DNA of 64,000 nt from Ignavibacteria bacterium RIFOXYC2_FULL_35_21 (GCA_001804705.1 MHAY01000060.1:52055-116054), one strand, 5' to 3'. Positions 8,415 through 58,919 are shown, numbered from the stretch's first letter. A program made the numbers and translations. Notes: a model not told the origin generated them from the sequence alone.

Positions 8415-11179
8415 AATTTTATAGCTTCTATGTTGACATCAGGCCTGATATTTCCTTTCCATTTGTTCACCAAAGCAACAAGAATTTTATAAATTTCAAT
8501 AATTATAATAATTGAAAATGTTGTGCACATAACAATCAACCATTCATTTGCAGATAGAGGTACCGTATCGAGTAAATTATTCATAACCGGAATTGCAACT
8601 GCAGAAATTTGCAAACCAATTGCAAGGACCATTACAGCAAGTAATGTAGGATTGCTAAATGGGTTGATACGGTCAATTCTGGTTCCGCCGGGATAAGGTA
8701 AGTTAGCAAACAAGGACCTGTCGAATGAACGTGAATTTTGAACGTTCCAAATCTGGAAAAAGGCTAAAACGCAAAATGCCATTGTCCTTGCTTTGTCATG
8801 TGAATTAGGATTTAATACAAGCTCAGCGTCAGGCAGGTAGTAATTGAACACAAGCAAGGTACCAATCATCATAATAAATCCGGAGATTATCATCTGATAG
8901 ACCATCCTTCTGTTTATTAATGGGCTCTCTTTTCTGCGAGGAAGGAATACCATTACATCGCCATGCTCCTTTTCAAAGGCAAGTGGGAAAGTTGATGTAC
9001 CATCTGTTACAAGGTTAATCCATAATAATTGTGCTGGAAGAACAGGCAAGGGAAAACCAAAAGCAACAGATACGGCAATTGTAAGTAAACCGCCAAAGCT
9101 GGTTGAGAGTATATATAATATAATATGCTGTAAATTTCTTAGAACAACTCTTCCTCTTCTGACAGCTTTAACGATTGTTGCAAAGTTATCATCAAAAAGA
9201 ACCATATGCGCTGATTCCTTTGCTACATCAGTTCCACTACCCATAGCCACACCGATGTCTGCCTGTTTCAATGCAGGCGCATCGTTAACACCATCGCCGG
9301 TCATTGCAACAATGTTTCCTCGTGCTTGCAATTGTTTTACTATTCTATATTTATGATGTGGAGCAACGCGGGCATAAACATCAATTTCAGGAACTTTATC
9401 AAATAATTCTTTATCGGTCATTTTATCAATTTCCAGCCCAGTGATTGCTACGGGTTTTGGTTTTCCTTTGCCTATTCCGACAGTTTTGGCTACTGATTGT
9501 GCTGTCTTTGCATGGTCACCGGTAATCATAACGACACGAATACCTGCATTGTGACATTTACTAACAGCTTCTACGGCTTCGGGCCTGACTGAGTCTTCGA
9601 TACCAGCAAATCCAATAAAAATCAAATTATTCAAATTATCGAGTGACAGAGGAAAGTTAATCGAATCATCGGAATATGCAAGGGCAAGAACCCTCAATCC
9701 TTTTTCAGAGAAAGCAAGGATAACATTATTCACATTATCCAAACTTAATGGAATTTTTGCCCCGTTAATATCAATCATTGAATTACATCTGTTTAATATT
9801 TTTTCCGGAGCTCCTTTAGCAAGTATATAATTTTTATCTTCTGAAACTACACTGACAGCCATTAATTGATTTTCGGATTCAAAAGGAATATCTATATTAA
9901 CCTGGAAATTGTTAGTGTTAAATCCAAGTTTCTTTGCAGCAATCATTAATGCTACTTCAGTAGGGTCACCGGTGATATCCCAGTCAGTTCCGTTTTCCTT
10001 AATTGCAGATTCGGTGCAGAGAGAACCAACTAATGCCGTAAGATTCAGAGCATAGTAATCATCGGCGAATACCTGTTCACCGCTATGTTGCGAAAATACC
10101 TGTCCTTCTCTTGAGTAGCCCGAACCAATGACATCAAAATATTCTCCACCGCTGTAAAGCCTAGTAACGGTCATTTGATTTTTTGTAAGAGTGCCTGTCT
10201 TGTCGGTACAAATGATATTAGTACTGCCGAGAGTTTCAACTGCCTTAAGTTTTTTTACAATGGCTTTTTGTTTTGCCATCTGCGACAGACCAATAGATAA
10301 TGTTATAGTAACAGCGACAGGTAATCCTTCGGGTATGGCTGAAACAGCTAAGCCGACAGAGGTGAGAAACATTGTTAGCCAATCATTTCCCCGAAGGTAG
10401 CCAACAAGAAAAATCACAACAACAATAACCATAATAGCTATGCTGATAAATTTGCCGAAAGCAGCCATCTGGATTCCCAGGGGAGATACTGTTTCTTCGG
10501 CTTCGGCTACCTTAACTGAAATTTTACCGAATTCTGTTTGATTACCAACAGCAGTAACGACTGCAACTCCTCTGCCTTTTTGGACAATAGTGCCTGAATA
10601 AAGCATTGTGAATCTGTCACCGAGAGGAGCATCCTTACTGATAATAGAGTTGGCGTTTTTTGTGATTGAAAAAGATTCGCCTGTCAGCATAGATTCATCA
10701 ATCAGCAGATTTTGAGAATCAATTAACCGTGCATCTGCCGGTACCCTGACACCGCTTTCAAGTATAATAATATCACCAACAACGACTTCAGTAGCAGCTA
10801 TTATTTGTTGTATTCCTTCTCTTATGACACGGGCAGTCGGTGCTGTCATTTTCATCAGGGCATTTAATGCGTCCGAAGCCCTGCGTTCCTGGATAAATCC
10901 GATTAGAGTATTAAGTATAACGACAGTAGCTATTACAAAAGTGTCTTTTAATTCTGCAAGAAAAGCATTTAATACGGCTGCGACAATCAGAATATAGATA
11001 ACCGGGTCGTTGAATTGCTCGAGCAATAATACCCATGCTGATTTTTCTTTAGTTGATATTAGTGTGTTGTCCCCATGTTTTTCCCTCATATCATTTATTT
11101 GATTCGATGATAGTCCGGTTTCCTGATTAACATTTAATGTTTTCAGGACAACATCACTTGATTGCGTATGCCAAAACAT
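8405..11179 (-). CDS. P-type ATPase, type IIA-like cation (Ca2+-type) transporter
   Basis: DKTGTLT phosphorylation site (ICTDKTGTLT), PEGLP in TM4, TGDHAKTA, and MTGDGVNDAPAL. Start placed at M34 (MFWHTQ..). The ORF track extends it to 11278. Confidence 0.85.
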   Translation of the reverse strand: MFWHTQSSDVVLKTLNVNQETGLSSNQINDMREKHGDNTLISTKEKSAWVLLLEQFNDPVIYILIVAAVLNAFLAELKDTFVIATVVILNTLIGFIQERRASDALNALMKMTAPTARVIREGIQQIIAATEVVVGDIIILESGVRVPADARLIDSQNLLIDESMLTGESFSITKNANSIISKDAPLGDRFTMLYSGTIVQKGRGVAVVTAVGNQTEFGKISVKVAEAEETVSPLGIQMAAFGKFISIAIMVIVVVIFLVGYLRGNDWLTMFLTSVGLAVSAIPEGLPVAVTITLSIGLSQMAKQKAIVKKLKAVETLGSTNIICTDKTGTLTKNQMTVTRLYSGGEYFDVIGSGYSREGQVFSQHSGEQVFADDYYALNLTALVGSLCTESAIKENGTDWDITGDPTEVALMIAAKKLGFNTNNFQVNIDIPFESENQLMAVSVVSEDKNYILAKGAPEKILNRCNSMIDINGAKIPLSLDNVNNVILAFSEKGLRVLALAYSDDSINFPLSLDNLNNLIFIGFAGIEDSVRPEAVEAVSKCHNAGIRVVMITGDHAKTAQSVAKTVGIGKGKPKPVAITGLEIDKMTDKELFDKVPEIDVYARVAPHHKYRIVKQLQARGNIVAMTGDGVNDAPALKQADIGVAMGSGTDVAKESAHMVLFDDNFATIVKAVRRGRVVLRNLQHIILYILSTSFGGLLTIAVSVAFGFPLPVLPAQLLWINLVTDGTSTFPLAFEKEHGDVMVFLPRRKESPLINRRMVYQMIISGFIMMIGTLLVFNYYLPDAELVLNPNSHDKARTMAFCVLAFFQIWNVQNSRSFDRSLFANLPYPGGTRIDRINPFSNPTLLAVMVLAIGLQISAVAIPVMNNLLDTVPLSANEWLIVMCTTFSIIIIIEIYKILVALVNKWKGNIRPDVNIEAIKFYK

Positions 11180-14950: not shown

Positions 14951-15364
14951 TTACTTAATTGCTTCAGCAATACTTTTCTTCATTTCCTCTTCAAATTTCA
15001 TTTTATTACTTGTTCTTGCATAGTCTTTAACAATTGCAGAAACATCCACCGATGATTCATCCTGTCCAATTTTTGTAACAATAATGACAGTTTGCGATTT
15101 TGCATTGTATTTTGAAACTAAATCTATATTAGCAGAATCTGCTAACCGGATAACTTTAAATTCAATATTCTCGTTAGCAAAGTATTTAATCAAGACAGAA
15201 TCAACGTCTGCCTGAAGGGCATTACAGGCTCTTGCTTTACAGCAAGCAAGATTTGCTTTGAAATATAAAACTTCAATATATTTTTTGTTTTCTTGTGCTA
15301 AAGAAGTTTCAAATACTGAAATAACAGCCAAGAAAAGCAATAAAACTAATTTCTGCAAATTCAA
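14951..15364 (-). CDS. Small exported Cys-motif protein (ArsF-family-like), second copy
   Basis: Signal peptide, then YIEVLYFKANLACCKARACNAL. Same length and pattern as 12935..13342. Confidence 0.45.
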   Translation of the reverse strand: MNLQKLVLLLFLAVISVFETSLAQENKKYIEVLYFKANLACCKARACNALQADVDSVLIKYFANENIEFKVIRLADSANIDLVSKYNAKSQTVIIVTKIGQDESSVDVSAIVKDYARTSNKMKFEEEMKKSIAEAIK

Positions 15365-16093
15365 TTAATTTTCTCCTAATCTATCACAAAATGCTTTATA
15401 TACATTCTTTGCTCTTGACCTTTCAATTGCTTGTGTTTTCAAGTAATCCAGATTATTAATAACCATATCTAGTTTTGAGTATGGAAAACCCAATACTGCT
15501 TCTCCTGTCTTTACATCTGTTGCATCCCTGCATCCATAGCAACCGAAACTCATATTAATCATACCGCTCAAATATGGAATTACACATGCATCAACGCATA
15601 CAGCCTGTAAAATACTGGTGCTAAATTCAAGCCTTCCGCCATCCTCATTCAAATAAGCAAGAGCAAGCCACATCAACTTTTCTACTTCATCCTCAACTAT
15701 TATCACATCAGGAGTTTTATCGAAATTTTTCAATGGCTTCACAAGAACTGAATTAAATTTATTCTGCTCAATCCTTGGCATTGTTTCCATTACTTTCTGT
15801 CCAACTTCAAGTTCACGAAATATTCCATATCCTTGTAATATACTGCCGTTTTTTAACTGCTCTGTGAGTGGTTTAAGACCTAAAGCTGCTGCTGCCGCCG
15901 GACAAGCAATGTTATCTTTATTGATCGTTATTGATTTGCCATGTCGTGCTTCCATTACTGCCTGGCAAAACCGGCAGTCAATCTTATTAGACTGTTCAGA
16001 TTGATAATTTTCTTTGTAAAATTTTACACCTACCGGCAAGCCCGTTAATCCAATAGTGTTCATAACTTCTTCTGATATTTCTTTTAAGTTCAT
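15365..16093 (-). CDS. DUF169-family protein
   Basis: PVGVKFYKE, CRFCQAV, ACPAAAAALGL and FGCYGCRDATD match my memory of the DUF169 (COG2043) pattern. Function unknown. Confidence 0.6.
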   Translation of the reverse strand: MNLKEISEEVMNTIGLTGLPVGVKFYKENYQSEQSNKIDCRFCQAVMEARHGKSITINKDNIACPAAAAALGLKPLTEQLKNGSILQGYGIFRELEVGQKVMETMPRIEQNKFNSVLVKPLKNFDKTPDVIIVEDEVEKLMWLALAYLNEDGGRLEFSTSILQAVCVDACVIPYLSGMINMSFGCYGCRDATDVKTGEAVLGFPYSKLDMVINNLDYLKTQAIERSRAKNVYKAFCDRLGEN

Positions 16094-16504: not shown

Positions 16505-16691
16505 TAATTATGAAAATATATTTTGAATACCAAATGATTTCTAAAAAATATTTGCTTCTAAACAAGGAAATTTGAGGTTGTGTCAAGATAAAAATAAATA
16601 AACACCCAAAGTGGTAAAATGAAAATCGGAAAATATTTTTTATAATACCTGATTCTATGTTTGAAAACACCTATTGACTCATCTCGCATAT

Positions 16692-17234
16692 TCATTTTAA
16701 TTTTTTTTCTAGAACATTTTGAATCTCTTCTTCTATTCCAGTTATATATCCCATCCTTTGCCAGGTAATTTCTCCTTTCTCATTGAAAAGAATATAATGA
16801 GGTTTATCATTAACATTCATAGCTCTTTTGAAATCGCTGTTCTCATCAAGATAAATATCAAACAGCCAACCTTTTCCCTTTGCCAAGGGAGCAACTTTTT
16901 TGCTGCTTCTCGAATCGTCAATACTTATTGCGATCACTTTAAGACTAAATTTATCCTGCAATTCGCTATAATTATCAGCTAATCCATCCAGGGCTTTCAA
17001 GCTTGGACTACAGCAGGATCCAAAAAAGACAATAAGTAATGGATTCTGATCACTTGCCAGATATTTGGTGTCAATACTTTCTCCTTTCAGGTTCTTTATT
17101 TTTACAGAAGGGATTGAATTAATTTGTGAAAAAACCTTATTAAAAAGAATTAACAACACTACAATTATTGAAAATGATATAGTACGAATTTTCTTTGACA
17201 ATTTTAACTTCATATTTTTCTTTATAGTATTCAA
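16692..17234 (-). CDS. TlpA/redoxin-like exported thioredoxin-fold protein with a non-canonical CCSPS site
   Basis: Signal/anchor helix. PLLIVFFGSCCSPSLKAL aligns with the WCGPC region of TlpA-type proteins, with Trp replaced by Cys and the resolving Cys replaced by Ser. Confidence 0.6.
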   Translation of the reverse strand: MNTIKKNMKLKLSKKIRTISFSIIVVLLILFNKVFSQINSIPSVKIKNLKGESIDTKYLASDQNPLLIVFFGSCCSPSLKALDGLADNYSELQDKFSLKVIAISIDDSRSSKKVAPLAKGKGWLFDIYLDENSDFKRAMNVNDKPHYILFNEKGEITWQRMGYITGIEEEIQNVLEKKLK

Positions 17235-17242
17235 TAAATATT

Positions 17243-17386
17243 TTATACAATACTACCTTTATCTATATGAATCCTTACATTACCATAATTAGAAGCAACA
17301 GGACTATGCGTTACCATAGCAATAGTTATTTGATTCTCGATATTAATCTGTTTCAAAACTTCTAATATTTCAATTGCTGATTTCAT
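17243..17386 (-). pseudogene. Remnant of an ABC ATPase 3' end (47 codons), a paralogous copy of the end of gene 21581..22249
   Basis: My translation is MKSAIEILEVLKQINIENQITIAMVTHSPVASNYGNVRIHIDKGSIV*. The intact gene ends ...SIEILEVLKRINIENQITIAMVTHSPTASKYGNIRIHIDKGSIVN*. By hand alignment, nt 17247-17374 match 21588-21715 at about 113/128 with no gaps. There is no Walker A/B part. Confidence 0.8.
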
Positions 17387-17413
17387 AATTTTTATTAAAT
17401 CCGATATAAAAGC

Positions 17414-18682
17414 CTAAAAATAAAATCTTGCCCAAATATCTAATTTTCCTTCGTATTGTTTGCTGCCATATTCGGTATTATCACTACCAACTAAAAAAGT
17501 GGGCCATAGTATAAATTCAAAGTTTGTGACTGGTTTATAACTTAAAGGCATGCCAATTATAAAGCTATTATCATTTAAATTATAAATTGTATATAAAGCA
17601 GGAGTGAAGTCAACCCAGTTAAACGGCTCCGGCAACGATATTTTTAGGTATAAGTAATCCTGCATTAGGTTTGATGAAGTAAAATAATTTTTATTCATAT
17701 TAAGTGCTTCTGATACGGAAATATTATTTCCCGATGAAATTGCATTCAAAAGAAATTTGTTGTATTCCTCATATTCTTTTAGCATTAATCCAGCATCATT
17801 ATGATAATATTCTAAAATAAATGTCATATTTAACTCATTCAACCATCTTATACCGATTAAATAAGAAGAACCACTGATTTTTTCAAGCATTAAGATACTA
17901 TCTGAAACAGTATACTTTGAATGATTATCGAACAAACTGTATTCACAATGAATTTCTAAACTTGGAAAAATGTTTCTTGAGAAATCTAATCCGATTTTCG
18001 ATGAATTTGCTTTGCTGTAATAACTCATTAAATCAATATCAGTATCCCATAATAGAAAATATAATTTTACTGCTAAATCAGTGTATTCAAGTTCGGATAT
18101 TTTATTATTAATCGTTTTTATCGAAGGTATAACAATTAAGTCAATAGCCATATTATTAATAAAGTCGCTTTGAAAGCTTTTGGAATATTGAAGATTAATA
18201 GAAAAAATACCGGACTTTGCGAGTTCAGGATTTTCCGGGTCTTTTACAGAATTGACATAACCGACAGGATTAAAGGCATATCCTTTGCCCCAATTAAGCA
18301 TTTTTTTGCCTATGATAGCATCCATATTTTGGAATAAGCTAATATTTCCATACATTTCAAATAAATTTATATCAAACTGATTGTCATTATAATATTCGGA
18401 ATGGGTTTTAATGTGAAAGCCTAAATCTTTTGTTTGATAGTCGCCATTAAGATATAATTCCATTCTGTATGATGATAAAACATCTGATAAATCCTGATTA
18501 TAAAACATTAAATTATATATAGGAGAACTTTTTCTGGTTTTATTTAATGAATATTTACTATCAAGATTCCCGCTTAATTTTAATGTTTCGACTTCACTTA
18601 ATACAAAGCTGCTATCATAGTCTTGCGCTGATAATATAGTAATCATTAATATGGAATATATAAAAATAAAAAAAGTCTTCAT
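17414..18682 (-). CDS. Predicted outer-membrane beta-barrel protein, family unknown
   Basis: Signal peptide, alternating amphipathic Tyr/Asn/Ser-rich strands, and a C-terminal ...IWARFYF aromatic terminus typical of OM barrels. Confidence 0.5.
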   Translation of the reverse strand: MKTFFIFIYSILMITILSAQDYDSSFVLSEVETLKLSGNLDSKYSLNKTRKSSPIYNLMFYNQDLSDVLSSYRMELYLNGDYQTKDLGFHIKTHSEYYNDNQFDINLFEMYGNISLFQNMDAIIGKKMLNWGKGYAFNPVGYVNSVKDPENPELAKSGIFSINLQYSKSFQSDFINNMAIDLIVIPSIKTINNKISELEYTDLAVKLYFLLWDTDIDLMSYYSKANSSKIGLDFSRNIFPSLEIHCEYSLFDNHSKYTVSDSILMLEKISGSSYLIGIRWLNELNMTFILEYYHNDAGLMLKEYEEYNKFLLNAISSGNNISVSEALNMNKNYFTSSNLMQDYLYLKISLPEPFNWVDFTPALYTIYNLNDNSFIIGMPLSYKPVTNFEFILWPTFLVGSDNTEYGSKQYEGKLDIWARFYF

Positions 18683-19416
18683 TTTCTTAAGCCTTCTAAT
18701 TTTGACATATAATTAATAGTAAAAACTTCATCCTGAAATTTTCTTGGATTAACTTTTATGTATATCATTTTTGAAAAGTATCCCTTATACAGTGGACTTG
18801 TTGTTTCAAGTATTGAAGGCCTTTTCAACCCATTACTAAAATCTTTTACTTCCTTAAATTCAAGCGTTTTTATTAGCATCCCACCCGCAGAATAGCATTC
18901 TATTTTTGTTAATATCTCATCTTTGGTTGCCCACATTTTTAATTTATCATAAGCGACGGTTTGGTTCTTTGCCTTTAAGTCCAGGATATATCCTTTTTCG
19001 TTTTTATCCGCTTTAATAACATTATATTCGGCGTTATAATCAACTTGCATTATATCGGCATTATTGAATACTCCGCCGGTAATTGACTGCAGGCTGGTAA
19101 TACGAATCGGCTTGCCGACATTGGGTATATAAAGCCACATATTATCTCCGACTCTTAAAGTTGTTCTGCCTTTTTCACTTGCAGGTGAAAGGAAAAGCAT
19201 AGCCACTTTATCCTTATCCTTTTTTACTGTATAAACATTAAATTCTTTTGTCTTTCCATCAGGATAAATATCAATTAATTTTCGATATGCTTCATAACTT
19301 GCAGGCATAAGTTTATCATCTATTCTTTTCAACAACTCATCGCCGCTTTGTGCAAAAAGCAAAAATGTTGTTGAGAAAAGAAATATTAGCAATAAGGTTG
19401 TTTTGTAGATTTTCAT
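18679..19416 (-). CDS. LolA-like outer membrane lipoprotein-sorting-type periplasmic protein
   Basis: Signal peptide, then GDELLKRIDDKL...KVAMLFLSPASEKGRTTLRVGDNMWLYIPNVGKPIRI...GGVFNNADI. This is the pattern of LolA_like proteins that accompany FtsX-type ABC permeases. Confidence 0.65.
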   Translation of the reverse strand: MKIYKTTLLLIFLFSTTFLLFAQSGDELLKRIDDKLMPASYEAYRKLIDIYPDGKTKEFNVYTVKKDKDKVAMLFLSPASEKGRTTLRVGDNMWLYIPNVGKPIRITSLQSITGGVFNNADIMQVDYNAEYNVIKADKNEKGYILDLKAKNQTVAYDKLKMWATKDEILTKIECYSAGGMLIKTLEFKEVKDFSNGLKRPSILETTSPLYKGYFSKMIYIKVNPRKFQDEVFTINYMSKLEGLRK

Positions 19417-19434
19417 AATTATTATCTCAATTTA

Positions 19435-20685
19435 TTAAACATGTCTTAATGCTTCAACCGGTTCCATTTTCGATGCCTTGATTGCCGGCTGTAAGCTTGC
19501 AAATGCCGAAATAATAATAACAATTAGCAATGTAAATAAAATTTCAGCAATTGGTATTTGAGGAGCAAGTGTAAGTTCCATCATGCCAAAAGTAAAGTTC
19601 AATTTAAATGCACTTATTATCAATAATATTAATGCGCCAAAAATATTGCCGGCAATAGCGCTGAAAAAGCCAAGAGTAAGACCTTCGCTCAAGAAAAGTA
19701 AAAGGATTTTCCCCGGCAATGTACCGATTGATGCAATTGTTCCGATTTCTCCAATCCTTTCGTAAACTGACATCATCATAACATTTAAAATGCTGATTAA
19801 AACAATTGATATTAGAACAATCCTAATAGTTATTATTAATAATGATACTATCTTTGATATACTTGCAAAAGGAGATAATTCTTCCCAAGTGTGAATTTCA
19901 AAGTTTTGATTAGTTGAATTTTTTCCATCTATTTTTAAAATATCTTTTTTCAATTTTTTTACTACGCTGTTCAATTTATTAAAATTATTCAGTTTTACAG
20001 CAATTTCAGTAATATCTCTGTTTCCAATTCTTAATATGGATTTTGCATCATCAATATGAATATATCCGTCTTTACCTTGTGGACCAAGAATGTTTTCCGA
20101 GATTCCTGAAATTCTAAAGTTCATACCATTAACCGAACCATCTTTATTAGTCGCGATTATGACAACATCGTCTCCGACTTTTAAATTCATTCCATCTGCA
20201 ATATTAAGTGGAATTACTACCGAACCCGGTTTAACAAAAGTATTTGGTTCGGAATTTCCTTTTTCTATTCTTTTTACAAGTCCTGGACAAGTTTTACTTT
20301 CGTTTTCGGGATTTACTGCAGTTAATTTTAAATTAGTTGTTTGAGTAAAATTACTTATCATAGCACCAAATTTAATCCTTTGGGAATATGCTTTTACTTC
20401 GGGATTGTTAGATAATAATTTCTCTATTCGTTTTAAATCTTTTTCAGGGATAGTAATATCCAAGGGTAAATTATCTATTGAGCTTACATATCCTTTTTTA
20501 TGTATTTGGATGTCTCCAAGATTAGATTCAGTTAGAATTCCGATAATCTCCTTGTTAAAAGAATTACCGATACCGCTGAAAATTATGACTAAAGCTACGC
20601 CCATAGTAATTAAAGAAGATGTTAATAACGTTCTGCGCTTATATCTCATGATATTTCGTATTGCTAATTTTATTATGGTTTTCAT
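19435..20685 (-). CDS. ABC transporter permease, FtsX/MacB/LolC type (module 2)
   Basis: N-terminal TM helix, a periplasmic domain of about 250 aa, three C-terminal TM helices, and a C-terminal ..PAIKASKMEPVEALRH motif. Confidence 0.85.
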   Translation of the reverse strand: MKTIIKLAIRNIMRYKRRTLLTSSLITMGVALVIIFSGIGNSFNKEIIGILTESNLGDIQIHKKGYVSSIDNLPLDITIPEKDLKRIEKLLSNNPEVKAYSQRIKFGAMISNFTQTTNLKLTAVNPENESKTCPGLVKRIEKGNSEPNTFVKPGSVVIPLNIADGMNLKVGDDVVIIATNKDGSVNGMNFRISGISENILGPQGKDGYIHIDDAKSILRIGNRDITEIAVKLNNFNKLNSVVKKLKKDILKIDGKNSTNQNFEIHTWEELSPFASISKIVSLLIITIRIVLISIVLISILNVMMMSVYERIGEIGTIASIGTLPGKILLLFLSEGLTLGFFSAIAGNIFGALILLIISAFKLNFTFGMMELTLAPQIPIAEILFTLLIVIIISAFASLQPAIKASKMEPVEALRHV

Positions 20686-21399
20686 TTAATTGTACTCCCT
20701 AAGTGTTGCATTCGTATTTTCTTGTACTGTGATAATTAGCCCGTCTTCAAGTGTATAAATGATTTCTGCTTCTTTCATAATCTTGGGGTCATGGGTAGCA
20801 AAAATAAAAGTAGTACTGAATTCATCTTTCATATTCCTCATTAACTCTAATACTTTGAAGGCAGTAATATGGTCGAGATTCGCTGTCGGTTCGTCTGCCA
20901 ACACCAGTTTCGGTTCCGTTACAAGCGCTCTTGCAATAGCTACTCTTTGCTTCTGTCCACCGGAAAGCTGGGCGGGGTACTTATCTTTTTGATCCAGCAT
21001 TCCGACTTTTTCAAGCAAGGCATTTATTTTTTGCTTTCGAATTTCTAACGGGACATTTTGCACCATTATCAGAGGATATTCAACGTTTTCATATACTGAA
21101 AGAACAGGAATGAGGTTGAAATTTTGAAAAATAAAACCGATATTTTTTCCCCTAAATTTTGCTAAGGACTTCCTGTCCATATTGTTGATTTCTGTTCCCG
21201 CCACAAACACTTTCCCTTCGGTTGATTTGTCTATACAGCCGATTAGATTAAGTAATGTAGTCTTTCCACTGCCCGAAGGCCCAATAAATGATACAAAGAG
21301 TCTTGTAGTTATTGAGAAATTTATACCATTTAATGCAGGGACGGTAATTTCTCCCATCTTATATAACTTTTTTACATCCTGAAAATTAATTAAGTCCAT
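20686..21399 (-). CDS. ABC transporter ATP-binding protein, MacB/LolD type (module 2)
   Basis: [39 protein letters not shown] and the H-loop ATHD. Confidence 0.9.
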
Positions 21400-21500
21400 A
21401 AATATATCTCCTTGTAATTTATTTAAATATTATTATGGTTATTAGACAATGAAATATTCATAAGGTTTAATTTAATATTTGATTTCATATCTCACTTCTA

Positions 21501-21570
21501 TCACTTGCAAACATCCTGTGTACTTAAAGTTCCGGCTTCCAGATTTTTAAAATATTTCTTTTGGATTCAC
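21501..21570 (-). pseudogene. acr3: Remnant of an acr3 3' end (last 22 codons plus stop)
   Basis: Ungapped colinear match of 21501-21570 to 24302-24371, about 55/70 by hand count, with the stop codon at the same position. It reads IQKKYFKNLEAGTLSTQDVCK*, against [21 protein letters not shown] in the intact acr3. Confidence 0.7.
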
Positions 21571-21580
21571 TTAGCAGTAT

Positions 21581-22249
21581 TTAATTCACAATACTTCCTT
21601 TATCTATATGAATCCTAATATTACCATATTTAGAAGCCGTGGGACTATGCGTTACCATAGCAATAGTTATTTGATTCTCGATATTGATTCTTTTTAAAAC
21701 TTCCAAAATTTCAATAGATAAGGCAGGGTCAAGATTGCCAGTAGGTTCGTCTGCTAAAATCAGATTAGGCTTGTTTACTAAGGCTCTCGCAATTGCTACT
21801 CTTTGCTGTTGACCTGCGGATAGCTCTTTAGGTAAATGATTCATTCTATCTTTTAAACCAACTGTTTCAAGTAAATGAATGGCATAATCACTTTTAGTTC
21901 TTTCTCCGTTTTGATTCAAAGATAAAGGAATAAGTACGTTGTTTAGTACAGACAAATATGGAATCAAACTGAAATTTTGCATAACAAAACCTATATGCTT
22001 GCTTCTGATGCCGGCTAATACATTATCAGAAGCAGAATGGAGTTCATGTTTCTGAAATTTGATTGAACCTGCTGTTGGTCTTAATAATCCGGCAAGTAAC
22101 AGCAATAGAGTCGTTTTGCCTGAGCCGGAAGGTCCGGTGATTGTAACAAAATCACCTTGATTGAATCCTAAGTTAATATCCTTAATCGCTTCTACGATAC
22201 CATCTTTATGTTTGTAAAATTTCGATAATCCTTTTGTTTCTATTAACAT
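21581..22249 (-). CDS. ABC transporter ATP-binding protein, MacB/LolD type (module 1)
   Basis: [40 protein letters not shown] and VTHS. Confidence 0.9.
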   Translation of the reverse strand: MLIETKGLSKFYKHKDGIVEAIKDINLGFNQGDFVTITGPSGSGKTTLLLLLAGLLRPTAGSIKFQKHELHSASDNVLAGIRSKHIGFVMQNFSLIPYLSVLNNVLIPLSLNQNGERTKSDYAIHLLETVGLKDRMNHLPKELSAGQQQRVAIARALVNKPNLILADEPTGNLDPALSIEILEVLKRINIENQITIAMVTHSPTASKYGNIRIHIDKGSIVN

Positions 22250-22250
22250 T

Positions 22251-23468
22251 TTAAGCCTCCTGCATAATTTTATATGGTTCTATTTTACCTGCTAAATATG
22301 CAGGAATTAAAGAACCTAAAAGAGAAATAAGTAATGATATTAAAACTGACCAAAGCAAGAATATTGGTATAGGTTCAATATTCAAACCCGCTAACTGTGG
22401 TCCGAGTATTACACCTGATAAAGTACCGATAATATAACCCAATATACCGCCAATAATTCCGAGTATAGAAGCTTTAAGTAAAAGCATCTCATAAATTCTG
22501 CCCTTTGTGAAGCCAATCATTCTATAAGTTCCCAATTCTTTCTTTCTTTCATTAACATTTGCCCAGATAGAATTTCCTATTGAAATACCTCCGACAAAAA
22601 GAATTATAATTAGGAAAATAATTGAAATTTTATTCATTAATTGATTTGTCTTTATTTGCGTTGAAACAATTTGATTGATGGTAGTTATTTTAGTATCGGG
22701 TAGTATATTCCTTAATTTACCAAGCAATCCATCGCTTATTGCATTACAACAACCCATAATTTCAATGACACTCACCTGGTTTTCAATGCCGGTCAATTTC
22801 TGTACAGCATGTAAATGTGCAAATATCCTATCGTCGTCAATTGTACCTGTTTCGCCCAACACATTGAAAACTTTAAAATCACTACCGAGAATATTGACAT
22901 TTTCACCTTGTCTTAATTTCAAAGTAGTAGCAATATTAGACCCGACAATACATTCATTTTGTTGCAAAGTTTCAATTGGTTTTCTTTGAAGACGAACATC
23001 TTCATAACCGTGTGATTTATTAGCAGCGCTTGTGTCACAGGTTGCTTTCAATGCTTGTCCTGATAAACCTGAAGTTTGCCAAACGGGTTTTGAAATAATT
23101 TCATTAGAAGGCAATATACCAGTCAAAACAACGCTTTGGTTGTTGATTTTAATCCTACGAGTCAGTTTTGGAGATATATTATCTACTCCCTGTAATGTTG
23201 AAGTTCTAATCTTTTCGACATAATCTTCAGGAAAAGTTGGAGCATCTATATCTGCCGAGTAATAGTTATCAATGCTGGTTCCCTGAGGCAACACTAAAAT
23301 ATTAGCACCAAGATTATCGAGGTTGACAGCTACAGCTTTTTCTGAAACAACAGCAACAGAGCGAATACCTACTATCACTCCGATTCCAAGAGTAATTGCT
23401 AATAGTGCCGTTATCAATTGAGATTTTCGATGCCATATCTCTATTAACACTAATTTATAAATTTTCAT
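22251..23468 (-). CDS. ABC transporter permease, FtsX/MacB/LolC type (module 1)
   Basis: Same 1+3 TM topology with a large periplasmic loop. The C-terminal motif is PAYLAGKIEPYKIMQEA. Confidence 0.85.
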   Translation of the reverse strand: MKIYKLVLIEIWHRKSQLITALLAITLGIGVIVGIRSVAVVSEKAVAVNLDNLGANILVLPQGTSIDNYYSADIDAPTFPEDYVEKIRTSTLQGVDNISPKLTRRIKINNQSVVLTGILPSNEIISKPVWQTSGLSGQALKATCDTSAANKSHGYEDVRLQRKPIETLQQNECIVGSNIATTLKLRQGENVNILGSDFKVFNVLGETGTIDDDRIFAHLHAVQKLTGIENQVSVIEIMGCCNAISDGLLGKLRNILPDTKITTINQIVSTQIKTNQLMNKISIIFLIIILFVGGISIGNSIWANVNERKKELGTYRMIGFTKGRIYEMLLLKASILGIIGGILGYIIGTLSGVILGPQLAGLNIEPIPIFLLWSVLISLLISLLGSLIPAYLAGKIEPYKIMQEA

Positions 23469-23500
23469 ATTTGAATGTCCTTGTTAAATATCGTAATAAA

Positions 23501-24241
23501 TTATTTGCAGACTTTACCACTACTGGGAGGACAACAACCGCTACTGACCTTTTTATTTGCTGCTTCAACTAAGCTTTTGGCTTCGGTGATCCCGTTGAAC
23601 ATAGATGAAATCTGACCTTGTGCATTGATAACATATGTTATAGGAAATGAGGCATTTTTATCAAATTTGAATTTATTGATAAATGTTTTTTCATTTTTAT
23701 CATCAATATCCAGATTAATAATTGTGGCTTTATCTTTCAAACTCTTACAGGCTGATTGGCAGGCATCTAATTGCTTTTTACTATTCGAGTCAAATTGTTT
23801 TGAAAAGATAACGAATACAGAATTACCTTCATAAATTGCCTTTAAAACATCTTCTTCTTTAGGCGAAGGAACCATATTAACAAGTTGTTCTGGCGTCAGA
23901 TTTTGGGTGGGAGCACCTCCTGCAACAAACCCGTTGGTTGCAATTACCAATATAAGTGGAGTTGGAGCTCCTGCTAAACGATAAGTTTGTACAAGTTTAT
24001 GATTAGCAATGCTTGTTCTATCTAATTCTAATACAGTAGATTTAGAAATAGACTTTTGAGCTTTTTCTGCCAGATTCATGGCTTCCTTAGTGTTGGGATT
24101 ACCTCTTTCAGTAACTACAAGGAATACGATTTTACCATTCTTGTTTGCATTCTCAATGTCTTGCTTTGTATCAGCCAAGGATACAAATAGGTTCGCAAAA
24201 AATAATGTTGCGATTAGAACGGAAATGCTTAAATTTTTCAT
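23501..24241 (-). CDS. Exported protein with two thioredoxin-like domains lacking CxxC and a C-terminal GCCPPSSGKVCK tail
   Basis: Signal peptide. Two Trx-fold-like halves (GKIVFLVVTE...TPLILVIATNG and NSVFVIFSK...FPITYVINAQG). The final 12 aa carry a vicinal Cys pair plus a third Cys. Confidence 0.5.
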   Translation of the reverse strand: MKNLSISVLIATLFFANLFVSLADTKQDIENANKNGKIVFLVVTERGNPNTKEAMNLAEKAQKSISKSTVLELDRTSIANHKLVQTYRLAGAPTPLILVIATNGFVAGGAPTQNLTPEQLVNMVPSPKEEDVLKAIYEGNSVFVIFSKQFDSNSKKQLDACQSACKSLKDKATIINLDIDDKNEKTFINKFKFDKNASFPITYVINAQGQISSMFNGITEAKSLVEAANKKVSSGCCPPSSGKVCK

Positions 24242-24301
24242 GTGATTCTCCTAAAAATTATTTTTAAATTCTTTTATATTATAATCATTTATTTCATTCA
24301 A

Positions 24302-25384
24302 TTAAATGCGAAAATCCTGAGCAATCATAGTATCGGCTTCCTGATTTTTAAAATATTTCTTTTGGAACCACAATGCAACATTGACTAATGCAATCAGAGC
24401 CGGTACCTCAACTAATGGTCCTATTACTGCCGCAAATGCTTCACCTGAATTTATTCCGAATACTGCAACTGCTACTGCAATAGCTAATTCAAAATTGTTG
24501 CTTGCAGCCGTGAATGATAATGTAGCAGTTTTGGAATAATCTGCTCCAACTTTTTTACCCATATAAAATGAGACAAAAAACATTATAACGAAGTAAAGTA
24601 AAAGTGGTATCGCTATTCTTATTACATCAAAAGGTATTCTGACAATAAATTCCCCTTTTAAAGAAAACATTACGAATATTGTAAATAGCAAAGCTATCAA
24701 TGTAATGGGACTTATTTTAGGAATAAACTTTTTATGATACCATTCTTTGTTTTTGAATTTAATTAAAGTAAATCTGGTAAGGATGCCTGCAATGAAAGGG
24801 ATACCCAGATAAATAAATACACTTTCTGCTATTTGACCTATTGTAATATCTACCTTGAATGATTGCAGTCCGAGCCATTTTGGCAAAACTGTAATAAAAA
24901 CATAAGCATAAACGGAAAAAAACAGTACCTGGAAAATTGAGTTGAAAGCAACCAAACCTGCGGCATATTCTGTATCACCTTTGGCAAGCTCGTTCCATAC
25001 AATTACCATAGCAATACATCTTGCGAGTCCAATCAATATCAAACCAACCATGTAATGCGGATAGTCCTGAAGAAACAGAATTGCAAGAAAGAACATTAGG
25101 ATTGGACCGACAATCCAGTTTTGTACGAGTGATAATCCGAGAATTTTGAAATTCTTAAACACATCGCCCAGTTCTTCATATCTGACTTTGGCAAGCGGGG
25201 GATACATCATTAAAATTAGTCCCACGGCGATTGGAATGTTTGTAGTTCCCGATTGAAATTGGTTCCAGAAACCAACTATACCCGGGAATAAATAACCTGA
25301 CAATACACCTATAGCCATTGCAATGAATATCCACAATGTCAGGTATCTATCGAGAAAGCTAAGTTTTTGTGATATATTTTCCAT
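24302..25384 (-). CDS. acr3: ACR3-family arsenite efflux permease
   Basis: [22 protein letters not shown], and GLARCIAMV (containing the conserved Cys). Start placed at M12 (25384), just after the upstream stop. Confidence 0.9.
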
Positions 25385-25394
25385 TTTAATACTA

Positions 25395-26642
25395 TTATTT
25401 GTTAAACAGTTTTCCACCCATTAAATAAAAATATGCAGTTGCCCAATTTGCCAATAAAGTTGCAACACCGAAAATCAGCATACCAACACTGAACATAGCC
25501 CATGCTGATAAAATATTTCCAATAATACAACCGGTTGCAATTCCTGCACCAACTCCTATTAGAAATCCACCTAATGCCGCAATCAATATTTGACTTGGTT
25601 CCTTTGGTAAAAGTTTCGTTTGACCGGACATTAACCCGGATATAAATGCTCCAATTATAGTTCCTATTGAAAGTAGAATTAGCCATACACTGAGTTTCTT
25701 CGGTTCATATTTTGGAACGGCGACAGAAGGAATTTGAGCTGACTTTGTCTGTATGTATGTTATTGTACTATTAATATTAGTCTGTGCTTTGGGTTGAGGC
25801 TTCTGATAAATGAATCTTACATTATTATCAACAATTGCCTGATAAATATGATTAACACCATGCGTTACACCAAGAGGATAATTCCTGCCAACAGGCAATG
25901 ATGAGAGCCAAGCCAACATAGCAATTACTCCGATTGCAATACCAGTCTGCCAGGGTTTCCAGGATTTTGTAAATATCTTGTTAAATTGAAATTTGTCCTT
26001 TATGGTATTTTTTGTTCTTGTTTTCTTTTTTGAATTAATATAAATCAAAACAATAGTCAGCAGAAAAAACATTAAAACCAGCAGCCAGTACGGTAAACCT
26101 AATAACGAGTGCAGGGTAATTGCATTATCATTTTCACCATTTATAACGAAGCTAAGAAGAAATTTGTTGAATCCCTCCAGGGGGCCAAAATCAGCAAAAG
26201 AAATCCCAATTGGTATTGTTAAAAGTGCGGCAATGGAGTTAATATTTCCTGTTGCTCCTTTATACATACAACCGCTAATGCAGCCACCTCCTAAGACAGT
26301 GCCAACACCAAAAATTAATCCGCCAACTAATGCACTGAGCCAGATTAATTTTTTTGGAGCTAATTGTATGACACCTAAACTCTCAAAAATTGCAAACAGA
26401 ATCATTGATGTAAGAATTGCTATCCAGAATCCAAATAGTTTCTTAGAATCCCGCATAATGATTACTTCGCTCATAGCAGATGAACCGCACAGGTCACCCT
26501 TTTGGAGAGCAAATCCAAATAAGAAGCCAACTCCAATAGATAGGATAACCCATAATTCAGTTGCAACAGCAAGAATAACAACAGCTATAAAAAACAATGC
26601 AGAAATTGTTAATAATAATTTTAGATTATTTAATTGTCTCAT
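25395..26642 (-). CDS. YeeE/YedE-family (sulfur-compound transporter-like) membrane protein, full two-half fusion
   Basis: 415 aa with about 9-10 TM helices. Cys-containing re-entrant motifs are [21 protein letters not shown] and ATGCIIGN. Confidence 0.7.
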
Positions 26643-41112: not shown

Positions 41113-41547
41113 TTATTTCACAGCAATCATTGAAATTTCGATATGGGCACCCATTGGCAGGGCGGCTACCTGTATGGTTTCGCGTGCAGGGAAATCTGCA
41201 GTAAAAAATGAAGCATATACTTTATTGACAGGATTGAATTCTTTCATATCAGTCAAGTATATAGTTGTTTTTACGATATTTTCAAAAGTACAGTCTGCGG
41301 CTTCGAGAACGTTTTTTAAATTATTCAGAATAATTTCAGCTTCCTTGGCGGCACCACCTTCGGCGATTTTGCCTGTGGCAGTATCGAGTGCAATCTGCCC
41401 TGATAAATAAATTGTACTGCCGAACTTGATTGCCTGGCTGTAAGGACCAATGGGCTTTGGTGCTTTCTCTGAGAAAATTACTTTTTTGTCTTTTGCTGTT
41501 AAATTTAAAGACATAAACAAGCATAATATAAAAATAAAATATTTCAT
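41113..41547 (-). CDS. ridA: RidA (YjgF/L-PSP) family enamine/imine deaminase with an N-terminal Sec signal peptide
   Basis: MKYFIFILCLFMSLNLTA signal, then APKPIGPYSQAI..G..IYLSGQIALD...ARETIQVAALPMGAHIEI. Confidence 0.85.
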   Translation of the reverse strand: MKYFIFILCLFMSLNLTAKDKKVIFSEKAPKPIGPYSQAIKFGSTIYLSGQIALDTATGKIAEGGAAKEAEIILNNLKNVLEAADCTFENIVKTTIYLTDMKEFNPVNKVYASFFTADFPARETIQVAALPMGAHIEISMIAVK

Positions 41548-41561
41548 TTTTCCTCTATGAA

Positions 41562-42854
41562 TTATGATTTAGACATTTCTGTAATTGCTTCGACAAGAAT
41601 GTCGAGGTCTTTTGTTGACGTATAAACATGAGGTGTTACACGCACACCTTTGATGTTTTCCCAGTCAATCGGCGTTGTATGTATCTTGTATTTACTGAGT
41701 AATGTACTTTCGATGTCAGCAGGTTTCATACCGTCAATTGAAAAGATAGCCAAAGCACAAGAATAATTCTCTTTTAGAGAAGTCTGGAGCTTTACTCTAT
41801 CCAATTTTACCACTTTACTTGCCCAATAATTTTTAAGGAAACGCAAGCGTTCTTCTTTTCTTTTTGTAGTTATTGAATTATGGAAATTAATCGCACTTCC
41901 AATGGCATGTTCGGCAGGAAATGAGCGTGTGCCAAGTGTTTCAAATTTTCTGATGTCTTCACTTTCAGGTTTATCATTCGGGTAGAGGGGCCAGATTGTT
42001 TTGATTTTATTTTTCTTAACGTAGAGCATACCTGTTCCGAAGGGGGCACATAGCCATTTGTGGAGGCTGGTACCGAGAAAATCGCAATTCAAATCATCAA
42101 TTCTGAAATCAATATGAGCGAAAGTGTGAGCAGCATCAACAATCACATCAATACCAAGCTTATGTGCCTCATCAGCTATTTTTCTCGAAGGAAGAATCTG
42201 TCCGCTCCAGTTAATCATGTGAGTGATGTTAACTGCTTTGGTTTTTGAAGTGAATGTATTTTTGAACTGATTTACAATTTCATCATCATTTTCAAGTGGG
42301 AGATTCAGGTTTACCCATTTTATAATTATGCCGTCTCGTTTTTCCCTTTGTTTCCATGCATTAATCACATTAGGATAGTCCTGCTTTGTAAGGACAACTT
42401 CATCACCTTTGGATAAATTTAAACCGAAGATAACCATATCGAGTGCTTCTGTAGTATTTCTACATATTGAGACTTCCTCGATTGAAGTACCGGCTAAGTT
42501 TGCAAGGCGTTTTCTAAGCATTTCACGCCCCTGGTCAAGAATACGCCACATATAGTAAGATGGTCCCTCGTTGCACATACGATTAAAATTATCAAATGCA
42601 TCCTGAACGACTTTTGGCTGAGGACTGACACCTCCATTATTCAGGTTGATGATATTAGGATTGACAGTATAAGACTGCTGAACCCAAGCCCAGAAATCCT
42701 CATCCTGAGCTGAATCCTCGGGGGATAATCCCATAAAGTTGTTGTAAGCACTTTCGACGGAATCTTTTGCTTTTGCCGGGAAATAAGAAAAAAATGGTGC
42801 TGCTGTCAGGAAAACTCCAAGATACCTGACAAAGTCTCTCCTTTGGAATTGCAT
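41562..42854 (-). CDS. Class V aminotransferase-fold PLP enzyme (cysteine desulfurase / isopenicillin-N epimerase-like) with a twin-arginine signal
   Basis: N-terminal MQFQRRDFVRYLGVFLTAAPFF...AKA (Tat motif RRxFV). The PLP-lysine region is SLHKWLCAPFGTG. Confidence 0.75.
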   Translation of the reverse strand: MQFQRRDFVRYLGVFLTAAPFFSYFPAKAKDSVESAYNNFMGLSPEDSAQDEDFWAWVQQSYTVNPNIINLNNGGVSPQPKVVQDAFDNFNRMCNEGPSYYMWRILDQGREMLRKRLANLAGTSIEEVSICRNTTEALDMVIFGLNLSKGDEVVLTKQDYPNVINAWKQREKRDGIIIKWVNLNLPLENDDEIVNQFKNTFTSKTKAVNITHMINWSGQILPSRKIADEAHKLGIDVIVDAAHTFAHIDFRIDDLNCDFLGTSLHKWLCAPFGTGMLYVKKNKIKTIWPLYPNDKPESEDIRKFETLGTRSFPAEHAIGSAINFHNSITTKRKEERLRFLKNYWASKVVKLDRVKLQTSLKENYSCALAIFSIDGMKPADIESTLLSKYKIHTTPIDWENIKGVRVTPHVYTSTKDLDILVEAITEMSKS

Positions 42855-58746: not shown

Positions 58747-58919
58747 CTTACATTATTTAAACTTAATAATAAATACAAACTACAAAGTTACGAAAAGGTT
58801 ATGAAATTTTAACTTATGAAGTTTTATAGCAGTTCCATAATTCAATTTCTTTTTTTTACTTCTAATTTTTATTATTTTTATAAATATTAATTTTGTTATA
58901 AAAATCAGATGTAATTAGT

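Follow-up and report, generated by a model that had tools for sequence, protein, structure and literature searches.

Gene content of the locus

The window, i.e. the whole 64-kb stretch of DNA that was analysed, carries an arsenic island with two MacB-like ABC exporter modules, both encoded on the minus strand (Table 1). Each module pairs a four-helix FtsX permease, which contains a MacB periplasmic core domain, with a cognate ATPase, and the gene labels were upheld by Pfam (SBF/Acr3, FtsX+MacB_PCD, ABC_tran and LolA_like). No equivalog match to MacB, LolC/E or LolD was obtained, all NCBIfam scores being far under the curated cut-offs. The modules have in common with MacAB and LolCDE (type VII ABC systems) the FtsX/MacB_PCD permease and the LolD/MacB-like ATPase, but the MacA/TolC partners are replaced here by a Trx-like protein in module 1, and by a LolA-like protein and an AlgE-like barrel in module 2. 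The barrel assignment comes from a structure model, in which the 422-aa protein folds as an AlgE/porin-like beta-barrel (pLDDT 86; Foldseek E=1e-10; TM ~0.5). Module 2 is bracketed by two truncated gene copies, an acr3 3' stub and an ATPase 3' stub, and an AhpC/redoxin-like gene is the sole intact gene between the latter and a third stub, which derives from a permease.

Table 1. Features of the exporter region, in window coordinates
Feature	Position	Strand	Remarks
Resident parent unit acr3-Trx-permease-ATPase	21581..25417	-	proposed duplicated segment 21581-24382
Resident acr3	24302-25417	-	Pfam SBF/Acr3
Trx-like protein, 246 aa	23501-24241	-	resident unit
MacB-type permease 1	22251-23468	-	PF02687 + PF12704
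ATPase 1, 222 aa	21581-22249	-	PF00005
acr3' 3' stub, last 22-27 codons and stop of a putative second acr3	21496..21581	-	secure core 21501-21570
Left 9-nt direct repeat, ATGAAATCA	21480..21488	-	abuts left end of module-2 insert
Module-2 insert, 4,093 nt	17387..21479	-	80-nt leader, four genes, 27-nt tail
Module-2 ABC ATPase	20686-21399	-	PF00005, ABC_tran
Module-2 FtsX/MacB permease	19435-20685	-	PF02687 + PF12704
Module-2 LolA-like protein	18679-19416	-	Pfam LolA_like
Module-2 AlgE/porin-like OM barrel, 422 aa	17414-18682	-	structure model
Right 9-nt direct repeat, ATGAAATCA	17378..17386	-	abuts right end of insert; doubles as mini-ORF start
ATPase-1' 3' stub, 47-aa ATG-to-TAA mini-ORF	17243..17386	-	ATPase homology 17239-17380, H-loop to C-terminus
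AhpC/redoxin-like gene	16692..17234	-	gene callers start 17213
Third stub, ArsP_1-family permease 5' end, 45 codons	16558..16695	-	ATG overlaps redoxin stop

Two gene remnants flank module 2

A sequence-only reading of the window had proposed that a copy of the acr3 tail follows the stop of the module-1 ATPase gene, and that a copy of the 3' end of that ATPase gene, retaining a 47-codon ATG-to-TAA mini-ORF, lies further downstream. Formal pairwise alignments confirm that both repeats are real and that the mini-ORF is present. The upstream copy matches acr3 at 55/70 positions without gaps (21501-21570 vs 24302-24371), and a self-BLAST of the window extends this to 86 gap-free nt at 75.6% identity (21496-21581 vs 24297-24382; E=2e-12); the downstream copy matches the ATPase gene at 113/128 positions, also ungapped (17247-17374 vs 21588-21715; E=5e-38). 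Among the five strongest self-similarities of the window the two repeats rank first and fifth by E-value, those in between being paralogous gene pairs, and the two stubs were the only gene remnants found by a first-pass blastx of the intergenic regions of the island.

The window has a G+C content of only 28-37%, and in one MAG scaffold (GCA_001802185.1) a run of 100 Ns falls precisely on the repeat copy in ATPase 1 (window 21596-21808), so it had to be considered that AT-rich sequence might give such matches by chance or that the assembly might be chimeric. Against chance stand the two E-values and the preservation of frame and stop position in the acr3 stub. Furthermore, contigs from ~14 samples carry the region, nine loci from eight assemblies, when compared with the window, show 99.85-100% identity, and both junctions are spanned in two of them (L001 and L002). 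As the arrangement recurs at this identity in every assembly checked, it is not an assembly chimera; the E-values and the independently assembled contigs practically rule out either origin.

The acr3 stub has the same frame and the same stop position as acr3 and reads IQKKYFKNLEAGTLSTQDVCK between stop codons. Of 371 codons only the last 22-27 are left, without a start, and a Trp codon of acr3 has become an in-frame TGA. By its similarity, frame and stop, and by its disabling changes, it is a 3' pseudogene fragment of acr3. Given that TGA and the near equality of dN (0.25) and dS (0.21), it has probably been neutral since its birth, as would be expected of a fragment made by duplication. The stub starts 0-18 nt from the ATPase-1 stop codon, and the sequence past its own stop has no significant homology to the resident acr3-Trx spacer (p=0.09).

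In the ATPase stub, homology extends from residue 176 of ATPase 1, in the H-loop region, to the C-terminus only, the first 3-4 codons of the mini-ORF being junction sequence; without Walker A/B, this is a 3' pseudogene fragment of an ABC ATPase. The homology between the two copies stops at 21578/17239, and the few bases past the two stop codons are not recognisably alike. Of 16 differences in 129 nt, 11 lie at third codon positions (binomial p=3e-4), and dN is 0.058 against a dS of 0.545, which suggests that the copy diverged while it was still a working gene. The central 44 nt are identical in the stub and ATPase 1; orthologues differ there at 3-9 sites (L189 at 5), almost all at third codon positions, and the tract would imply gene conversion between the two copies. 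Dating of the stub by dN/dS was set aside, being confounded by this tract, which likewise blurs the age of any duplication. Only ~30 nt of the stub is left in the L019/L101 lineage, so that it appears to be dispensable.

Affinities and limits of module 2

The closest named relatives of module 2 are found in Elusimicrobia, Desantisbacteria and Edwardsbacteria (60-77% amino acid identity), with Ignavibacteria at ~49%. Its relatives are mostly from outside the Ignavibacteria; as a rule they form isolated modules preceded by a PadR-like gene, a label that was read from the conserved C-terminus and was confirmed by Pfam in L020 only. The stubs, on the other hand, are 88% (ATPase) and 79% (acr3) identical to the resident genes, while orthologues reach at most 81-85% for the ATPase and have unalignable tails for acr3. 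Over the ATPase stub region the resident gene is 87.6% identical, the closest relative, L189, 84.5% and the others 68-79%; in the acr3 tail, stub and resident agree at 32/45 positions (a hand count from the alignment) in a region that is unalignable between orthologues. The affinities of the parts are discordant, both stubs being host-type, i.e. Ignavibacterial, and module 2 of foreign affinity.

Identical copies of the 9-mer ATGAAATCA lie just outside both ends of the module-2 insert. This 9-mer occurs just three times in the window, and the probability that two 20-40-nt windows share a 9-mer is 0.0016-0.010. At the left end, homology with L185 (Ga0376277) begins exactly at 21479, and the upstream gene there is porin-like, not acr3. 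The right end recurs only in L019, in an unchanged context: the junction there between cassette and ATPase stub is that of the window, so the two are likely to have been together at least since L019 split off. The repeat could have arisen as a target-site duplication or mark a microhomology joint. Since the 13-mer AATTATGAAATCA is also found in the start region of an arsP2-type permease gene in L189, it may instead be a former gene start. The L019 junction, in short and AT-rich sequence, may derive either from the ATPase stub or from an arsP2 start.

Origin of the stubs

The reading that we prefer, with a probability of about one half, is that the host unit once had a second copy, since gutted, of which the stubs mark either end and in which module 2 later landed. 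The stubs, read as sequence, support the former presence of a second acr3 and of a second module-1-type ATPase. A second acr3-Trx-permease-ATPase copy would have lain directly downstream of the intact unit, and its simplest origin would be a tandem duplication of ~2.8 kb, from window position 24382 to 21581 on the minus strand, whose single new joint would connect the ATPase stop to acr3 codon -27. The two stubs have the order and orientation of the resident unit, and the distance of 0-18 nt between the ATPase-1 stop and the acr3 stub, together with the end of homology at 21578/17239, fits such a single joint, at which the end of a unit is joined to an interior point. The same picture would result if a homologous unit had come in from a very close relative. 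We infer that module 2, a 4.1-kb foreign cassette, later landed in the interior of the dead copy or replaced it, and that its arrival left the 9-bp direct repeat at the ends of the insert. Being separate and later to land, module 2 would have left the stubs to hold the history of the target site, not that of the cassette donor.

On this reading the empty site before module 2 would read acr3 stub, one 9-mer, ATPase stub (TAGAAGTGAGATATGAAATCAGCAATTGAAATATTAGAAG), and an intact second unit (Trx'-permease'-ATPase') would end ...PVASNYGNVRIHIDKGSIV. Neither the 80 genome loci nor L181-L192 contain a second copy in whole or partly preserved form. The predicted ancestral adjacency of ATPase and redoxin was absent from the 80 module-1 loci and from eight loci of close relatives; that a predicted adjacency should be missing from more than 85 related loci counts against our preferred explanation, as do the dissimilar bases past the two ATPase stops, the want of a transposase, the weak inverted repeat, the lack of clear flanking repeats at other module-2 loci, the possible gene start at the 9-mer, and the presence in L019 of the junction between cassette and ATPase stub.

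The sequence-only reading had instead taken the remnants to frame module 2 exactly and explained them by recombination from a paralogous ars locus with acr3 ahead of module 2; in the form examined here, a single stretch made up of the acr3 tail, module 2 and the ATPase tail was cut from a paralogous or foreign ars locus, where acr3 stood directly upstream of module 2, and was pasted after ATPase 1. The stubs do bracket module 2, which often lies in ars neighbourhoods; acr3 directly follows the barrel gene in two loci (L164 and L167), and the right junction is common to the L019/L101 lineage (ERZ27247709, Ga0315282). However, module 2 has ends of its own inside the stubs, at 17387-21479, with the 9-bp repeat between, and the same left end adjoins a porin-like gene in L185. 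A search of 81 module-2 loci for the donor arrangement found acr3 directly upstream of the module-2 ATPase in none of the 41 with readable upstream sequence. The transfer of one segment would also leave unexplained why an acr3 tail abuts the ATPase-1 stop. The order of the stubs is that of the conserved resident unit, and the stubs are host-type, module 2 being of foreign affinity. The donor segment is not supported and is unlikely. It is also doubtful that the stubs are unrelated to each other, the acr3 stub being left by an acr3 that once stood after ATPase 1, and a 0.83-kb block (ATPase' tail-redoxin-arsP2 5' stub) having come from a homologous locus by illegitimate recombination. In favour of this, ATPase is followed by acr3 in 9/80 loci, including the 86-89%-identical L022; in L189, which is without module 2, the 43 nt past the ATPase stop match the stub region of the window at 24/43 (p=5e-5); truncated genes border the redoxin gene on both sides; and the content of the post-ATPase slot differs among relatives. 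But more events would be needed, both stubs seem to belong to one age class, with a divergence close to that of L189, none of the 80 loci has acr3 on both sides of module 1, and the L189 spacer shows no significant similarity in its second half (p=0.44).

Retention of the fragments for a function, as a 47-aa small protein or as promoters or translation signals for downstream genes, is highly improbable. The ATPase stub does show a low dN/dS against ATPase 1, its 47-aa ORF is called by gene callers in every assembly, and 3' stubs lie just upstream of retained genes both here and in L019 (a DUF169 stub before p137). Yet the low ratio is explained by divergence before truncation and by the 44-nt conversion tract, a fragment lacking Walker A/B cannot be an ATPase, the L019/L101 lineage has lost most of it, and a promoter/terminator scan gave no excess over shuffles. 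If the stubs are indeed the ends of a gutted second copy, they would form a clean, datable record of the rebuilding of one arsenic island, in which a foreign four-gene exporter now occupies the place of a lost second copy of the host's exporter unit; such a replacement hints at a similar role for the two MacB-like modules.

Comparison with known systems

In the manner of pseudogene stubs at the joints of resistance and genomic islands, the remnants are short, in-frame, truncated copies of neighbouring genes at block boundaries, and relatives differ in the genes that occupy a given slot; there is no essential difference, except that here the two ends of one conserved unit bracket a foreign cassette. 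With tandem duplication followed by degeneration or replacement, the locus shares the joint from ATPase stop to acr3 codon -27, in the same order and strand, and signs of gene conversion between copies; here the interior of the second copy is gone, and no relative with an intact duplicate was found.

Module 2 also resembles mobile insertion cassettes and non-autonomous transposable units, being a discrete passenger cassette of 4.1 kb that is flanked on either side by a 9-bp direct repeat and whose left end recurs in another genomic context (L185). However, its terminal inverted repeat is weak, with an anchored score of 8 over ~24 nt (p=0.005 under a general null, 0.03 under an AT-rich null) and no ungapped match within 3 mismatches at the cassette ends; no long inverted repeats or transposon ends were found around it, and no base-composition step was seen at it. 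No cognate transposase was found: a Pfam scan of the window ORFs with 150 aa or more, which covered all except two that overlap known genes on the opposite strand, gave no transposase or integrase match, RecA being the sole recombinase. The 9-mer is perhaps a former gene start, and flanking direct repeats were in no clear excess at 37 other module-2 loci. It is quite unlikely that module 2 is a self-contained, non-autonomous mobile cassette with AT-rich ends and a 9-bp target duplication, which moves an envelope exporter between phyla into arsenic islands and here replaced a resident analogous MacB-type module. Integron gene cassettes likewise are promoter-less blocks added serially in one orientation, but the module-2 cassette is a four-gene operon, the window encodes no integrase, and the cassette ends lack an attC-like or structured inverted repeat.

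Mosaic structure and linkage to ars genes

The third stub has a full-length parent type in L189 (GCA_016219595.1), where a 347-aa permease is located after the ATPase. Depending on the relative, the position behind the ATPase is occupied by arsC, acr3, arsP2, an omp312-like gene, an IS-like transposase or a putative DUF3800-like protein (read from the sequence by eye). This stub and the variable slot confirm that the island is a mosaic, built from shuffled blocks. Homology of the whole ATPase-to-9-mer spacer to L189 was considered and set aside, being convincing over the first 43 nt only. The earlier description of the stubs as mosaic junctions holds, relatives carrying other genes in the same slots and further stubs; of the proposed growth by cassette recombination, shuffled blocks and a foreign cassette are borne out, and the insertion mechanism is a matter of inference. 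The 47-aa and 45-aa 'hypothetical proteins' should be flagged as gene fragments in annotation.

The remnants had also been taken as evidence of a habitual linkage between these exporters and acr3. They resemble commonplace scars left by the rearrangement of host genes and do not prove that cassette and acr3 travelled together; the linkage of both modules to ars genes is nonetheless real, on the basis of comparative loci. The Trx-permease-ATPase core is present in 78 of 80 related loci, with acr3 directly upstream in 6, as also in L190 and L192; ars markers accompany module 1 in 68/80 loci and acr3 in 52/80. For module 2 the counts are 15/34 and 10/34, among loci with at least 8 kb of flank. 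Strong enrichment of both predicted exporter modules beside ars genes in related loci offers a testable lead. In a survey of ars operons, 5 ABC transporters were recorded among ~700 transporters, always alongside ACR3 (PMC4435449).

The two repeats and their reliability

On either side of the second ABC transporter module of the island (module 2) lies a copy of a gene end, one from acr3 (the acr3 stub) and one from the module 1 ATPase, ATPase 1 (the ATPase stub). Both repeats are as the sequence-only reading had described them, with 55/70 matching positions for acr3 and 113/128 (E=5e-38) for the ATPase. Comparison of the window with itself extended the former to 21496-21581 versus 24297-24382 (65/86, E=2e-12), and the two repeats rank first and fifth by E-value among its five strongest self-matches, the other three being paralogous gene pairs. 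The acr3 stub retains its frame and stop position, with a Trp codon changed to TGA, and the ATPase stub is an ATG-to-TAA ORF whose codons 1 to 3-4 are junction sequence. The region is present on contigs of ~14 samples, and nine loci from eight assemblies are 99.85-100% identical to the window, with both junctions spanned by two of the loci (L001 and L002); an assembly chimera is therefore excluded, and chance similarity or artefact is an extremely improbable source of the repeats. In one public MAG scaffold (L006; GCA_001802185.1, MGZP01000011.1), a 100-N gap at 9416-9515 corresponds to 21596-21808 of the window and falls exactly on the repeat copy within ATPase 1, a gene left uncalled there; other assemblies read through it.

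Layout of the arsenic island

From 11.4 to 31.4 kb every gene lies on the minus strand, forming an arsenic island flanked by housekeeping genes (RecA, RecX, LeuRS). Neither a transposase nor an integrase was found among the scanned window ORFs of at least 150 aa, which comprised all except two opposite-strand overlap ORFs. The 422-aa protein of module 2 has no Pfam match, and its confident structural model (pLDDT 86) predicts an AlgE/porin-like outer-membrane barrel. Within 14951-16093 (-), the 137-aa protein weakly resembles the ArsF family (nitroreductase subunit; NF040494; 42.8 bits versus a cut-off of 60), and its position beside a DUF169 protein and ArsP suggests an organoarsenical-handling block.

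Features of the arsenic island in transcription order (window positions)
Feature	Position	Strand	Remark
arsR, LMWP-type arsC, ArsM-like methyltransferase, thioredoxin-like genes, DGC protein, Sulf_transp permease		-	first in the island
acr3	24302-25417	-	
Trx-like protein	23501-24241	-	module 1; 246 aa
MacB/FtsX permease (permease 1)	22251-23468	-	module 1
ABC ATPase 1	21581-22249	-	module 1
acr3 stub	21496-21581	-	
ATPase (ATP2)	20686-21399	-	module 2
Permease	19435-20685	-	module 2
LolA-like protein	18679-19416	-	module 2
422-aa protein (barrel)	17414-18682	-	module 2
ATPase stub	17243-17386	-	47-codon ORF
Redoxin	16692-17234	-	
Third stub	16558-16695	-	45-aa ORF
Second arsR (arsR2), DUF169, ArsF-like 137-aa protein, ArsP, more thioredoxins, DsbD		-	after redoxin, in this order

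Module 1 and the slot behind its ATPase

A genome scan with permease 1 yielded 80 module 1 loci, mainly in Bacteroidota and Ignavibacteriota. In 78 of the 80, across Bacteroidota, Ignavibacteriota and others, the three genes (Trx-like, permease, ATPase) stand side by side; ars markers occur in 68/80 loci and acr3 in 52/80, and in six the gene immediately before the Trx-like one is acr3, as it is in the related loci L190 and L192. Earlier work had already recorded ABC transporters within ars operons, as 5 of ~700 transporters, always with ACR3 (PMC4435449). The unit of Trx-like protein, MacB permease and ATPase looks like an uncharacterised arsenic-linked exporter. The Trx-like protein of the window has a Cys-rich C-terminal tail (SSGCCPPSSGKVCK), and a population variant (L004/L014, JGI 3300025013) carries a ~42-nt in-frame deletion in permease 1 at 23344-23384 (391 versus 405 aa).

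The gene directly after the ATPase is arsC in 28/80 loci and acr3 in 9/80, and this slot is hypervariable among the closest relatives: it holds an arsP2-type permease in L189, an omp312-like gene followed by arsR2 in L186, an IS-like transposase in L190 (4981-6051; read from the sequence, the cut gene having no Pfam hit on record) and, on a similar reading, a putative DUF3800-like protein in L192, while the operon ends there in L181 and L184. L190, whose ATPase is 87% identical, also has a Bro-N gene at 1270-2106, between acr3 and the Trx-like gene, and thus mobile DNA enters these same slots.

The window carries a third stub as well. The 45-aa ORF (MNMRDES...YKKYFPIFILPLWVFIYFYLDTTSNFLV, then the stop), whose ATG overlaps the redoxin stop, is the truncated 5' end of an ArsP_1-family permease gene resembling arsP2 of L189 (347-aa type), with 68% identity over 88 nt by blastn (E=5e-8) and 14/28 by tblastn (E=9e-5). 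Relative to L189, the arsP2 gene body is replaced in the window by arsR2-DUF169-ArsF-like-ArsP-Trx, and upstream of arsR2 homology to L186 starts at 16540.

Module 2 as a discrete insert

The four genes of module 2 form a fixed cassette in 81 loci, usually behind a PadR-like gene, a label that reads the conserved C-terminus and has Pfam confirmation in L020 only. Among the 34 module 2 loci with flanks of 8 kb or more, ars markers occur in 15 and acr3 in 10; acr3 lies directly upstream of the module 2 ATPase in none of 41 loci, and in two it follows the barrel directly. The barrel has more than 1,300 homologues, the nearest on two metagenome contigs (~90% identical) and the next best at 60-66%, where the named relatives belong to Elusimicrobia, Desantisbacteria or Edwardsbacteria; those labelled Ignavibacteria stand at ~49%, and the module 2 ATPase has the same pattern of affinity.

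In L185 (ATP2 88% identical in amino acids), which has a porin-like gene upstream, homology to the window begins exactly at 21479 (AATATTAAAT...). In the related loci L019 and L101 (barrel 88-91% aa and 90-92% nt), homology covers the barrel, the tail of 27 nt, in which a 17-nt indel lies, the motif ATGAAA(A/T)CA and ~20 nt of the ATPase stub, and then jumps to a DUF169 3' stub, p137 and ArsP. Redoxin and arsR2 are absent here, as are the remainder of the ATPase stub and most of DUF169. These two loci are identical over their 1,616-nt overlap and ~90% identical to the window, and in them (L019 1655-1928) ~30 nt of the ATPase-stub junction precede the DUF169 3' stub, which is frameshifted. Immediately outside both insert ends stands the 9-mer ATGAAATCA (21480-21488 and 17378-17386), of which the window has only three copies; two random segments of 20-40 nt would have a 9-mer in common with P=0.0016-0.010. 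Judged by the left end in L185, the L019/L101 match and the terminal 9-mers, module 2 behaves as a discrete insert of 4,093 nt (17387-21479), with the stubs outside it. Any inverted repeat between the two insert ends is weak (p=0.005-0.03). The left 9-mer copy lies 92 nt past the ATPase stop (82 nt in L189), and the 13-mer AATTATGAAATCA with which the 47-codon ORF opens (17378-17390) is identical to the arsP2 start region of L189 (1461-1473).

Affinity and age of the stubs

Over 129 nt, the ATPase stub shares 87.6% identity with ATPase 1, against 84.5% with the orthologue of L189, the closest, and 68-79% with the others. Of its 16 differences from ATPase 1, 11 fall at third codon positions (dN 0.058, dS 0.545, p=3e-4 against neutrality), and the copy therefore diverged while still a working gene. 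Four amino acids differ; the stub has the family-consensus residue at two of these sites, and ATPase 1 shares the alternative state with L189 at three. The central 44 nt (21632-21675 versus 17291-17334) are identical, a stretch in which L189 differs at five sites and other orthologues at 3-9, almost all third codon positions, whereas 16/85 flanking positions differ, the same level as in L189; by this pattern the tract looks like a short gene conversion.

The acr3 tail is hypervariable, the tails of orthologues being unalignable, yet 32/45 positions of the variable part agree between the stub and the resident tail (hand count from the alignment). The substitutions in the stub are even across codon positions (dN 0.25, dS 0.21), which fits a piece that was never functional. 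From these affinities and substitutions, both stubs are host-type and of a similar age class, unlike module 2.

History of the joints

Gene stubs at rearrangement joints are a well-known phenomenon. Here the order of the stubs, acr3 tail and then ATPase tail, is that of the resident unit (acr3 plus module 1); the acr3 tail starts 0-18 nt from the ATPase 1 stop, and homology between ATPase 1 and its stub ends at 21578/17239. One tandem duplication from 24382 to 21581 would yield exactly the observed joint of ATPase stop and acr3 tail, its product being a dead acr3 tail and a live second Trx-permease-ATPase copy, whose interior module 2 would later have replaced, directly or after a deletion, leaving the 9-bp repeat as a trace. 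We consider this the most likely history, at a probability of about 0.5. Against it, neither an intact second copy of the unit nor an ATPase-to-redoxin adjacency was found in the relatives, and the AATTATGAAATCA match to the start of arsP2, the gene after the ATPase in L189, is not accounted for.

The sequence-only reading had a single donor segment, ordered acr3 - module 2 - ATPase, bring in module 2 with both stubs. Its view of the island as a mosaic holds, but an acr3-adjacent source for module 2 is not the best reading and seems unlikely, given the cassette limits, the discordant affinities of host-type stubs and module 2, and the absent acr3-to-ATP2 adjacency. Equally doubtful is an origin of the two stubs as independent relics, which draws support from the nine loci with ATPase-to-acr3 adjacency, from L189, where, without module 2, the 43 nt past the ATPase stop match the stub region of the window at 24/43 (p=5e-5), and from the truncated genes that bound redoxin on both sides. 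That the stubs were kept for a function is very improbable, most of the ATPase stub being lost in L019.

Other repeats in the window

A weak self-match (63% over 98 nt, E=6e-4) links the aminotransferase gene region at 41488-41585 with the LolA/barrel junction at 18620-18717. Further along, an imperfect palindrome of 103 nt occupies 58839-58941, and an internal tandem repeat lies within the gene of an 847-aa Ig/fn3 protein at 61618-62415.
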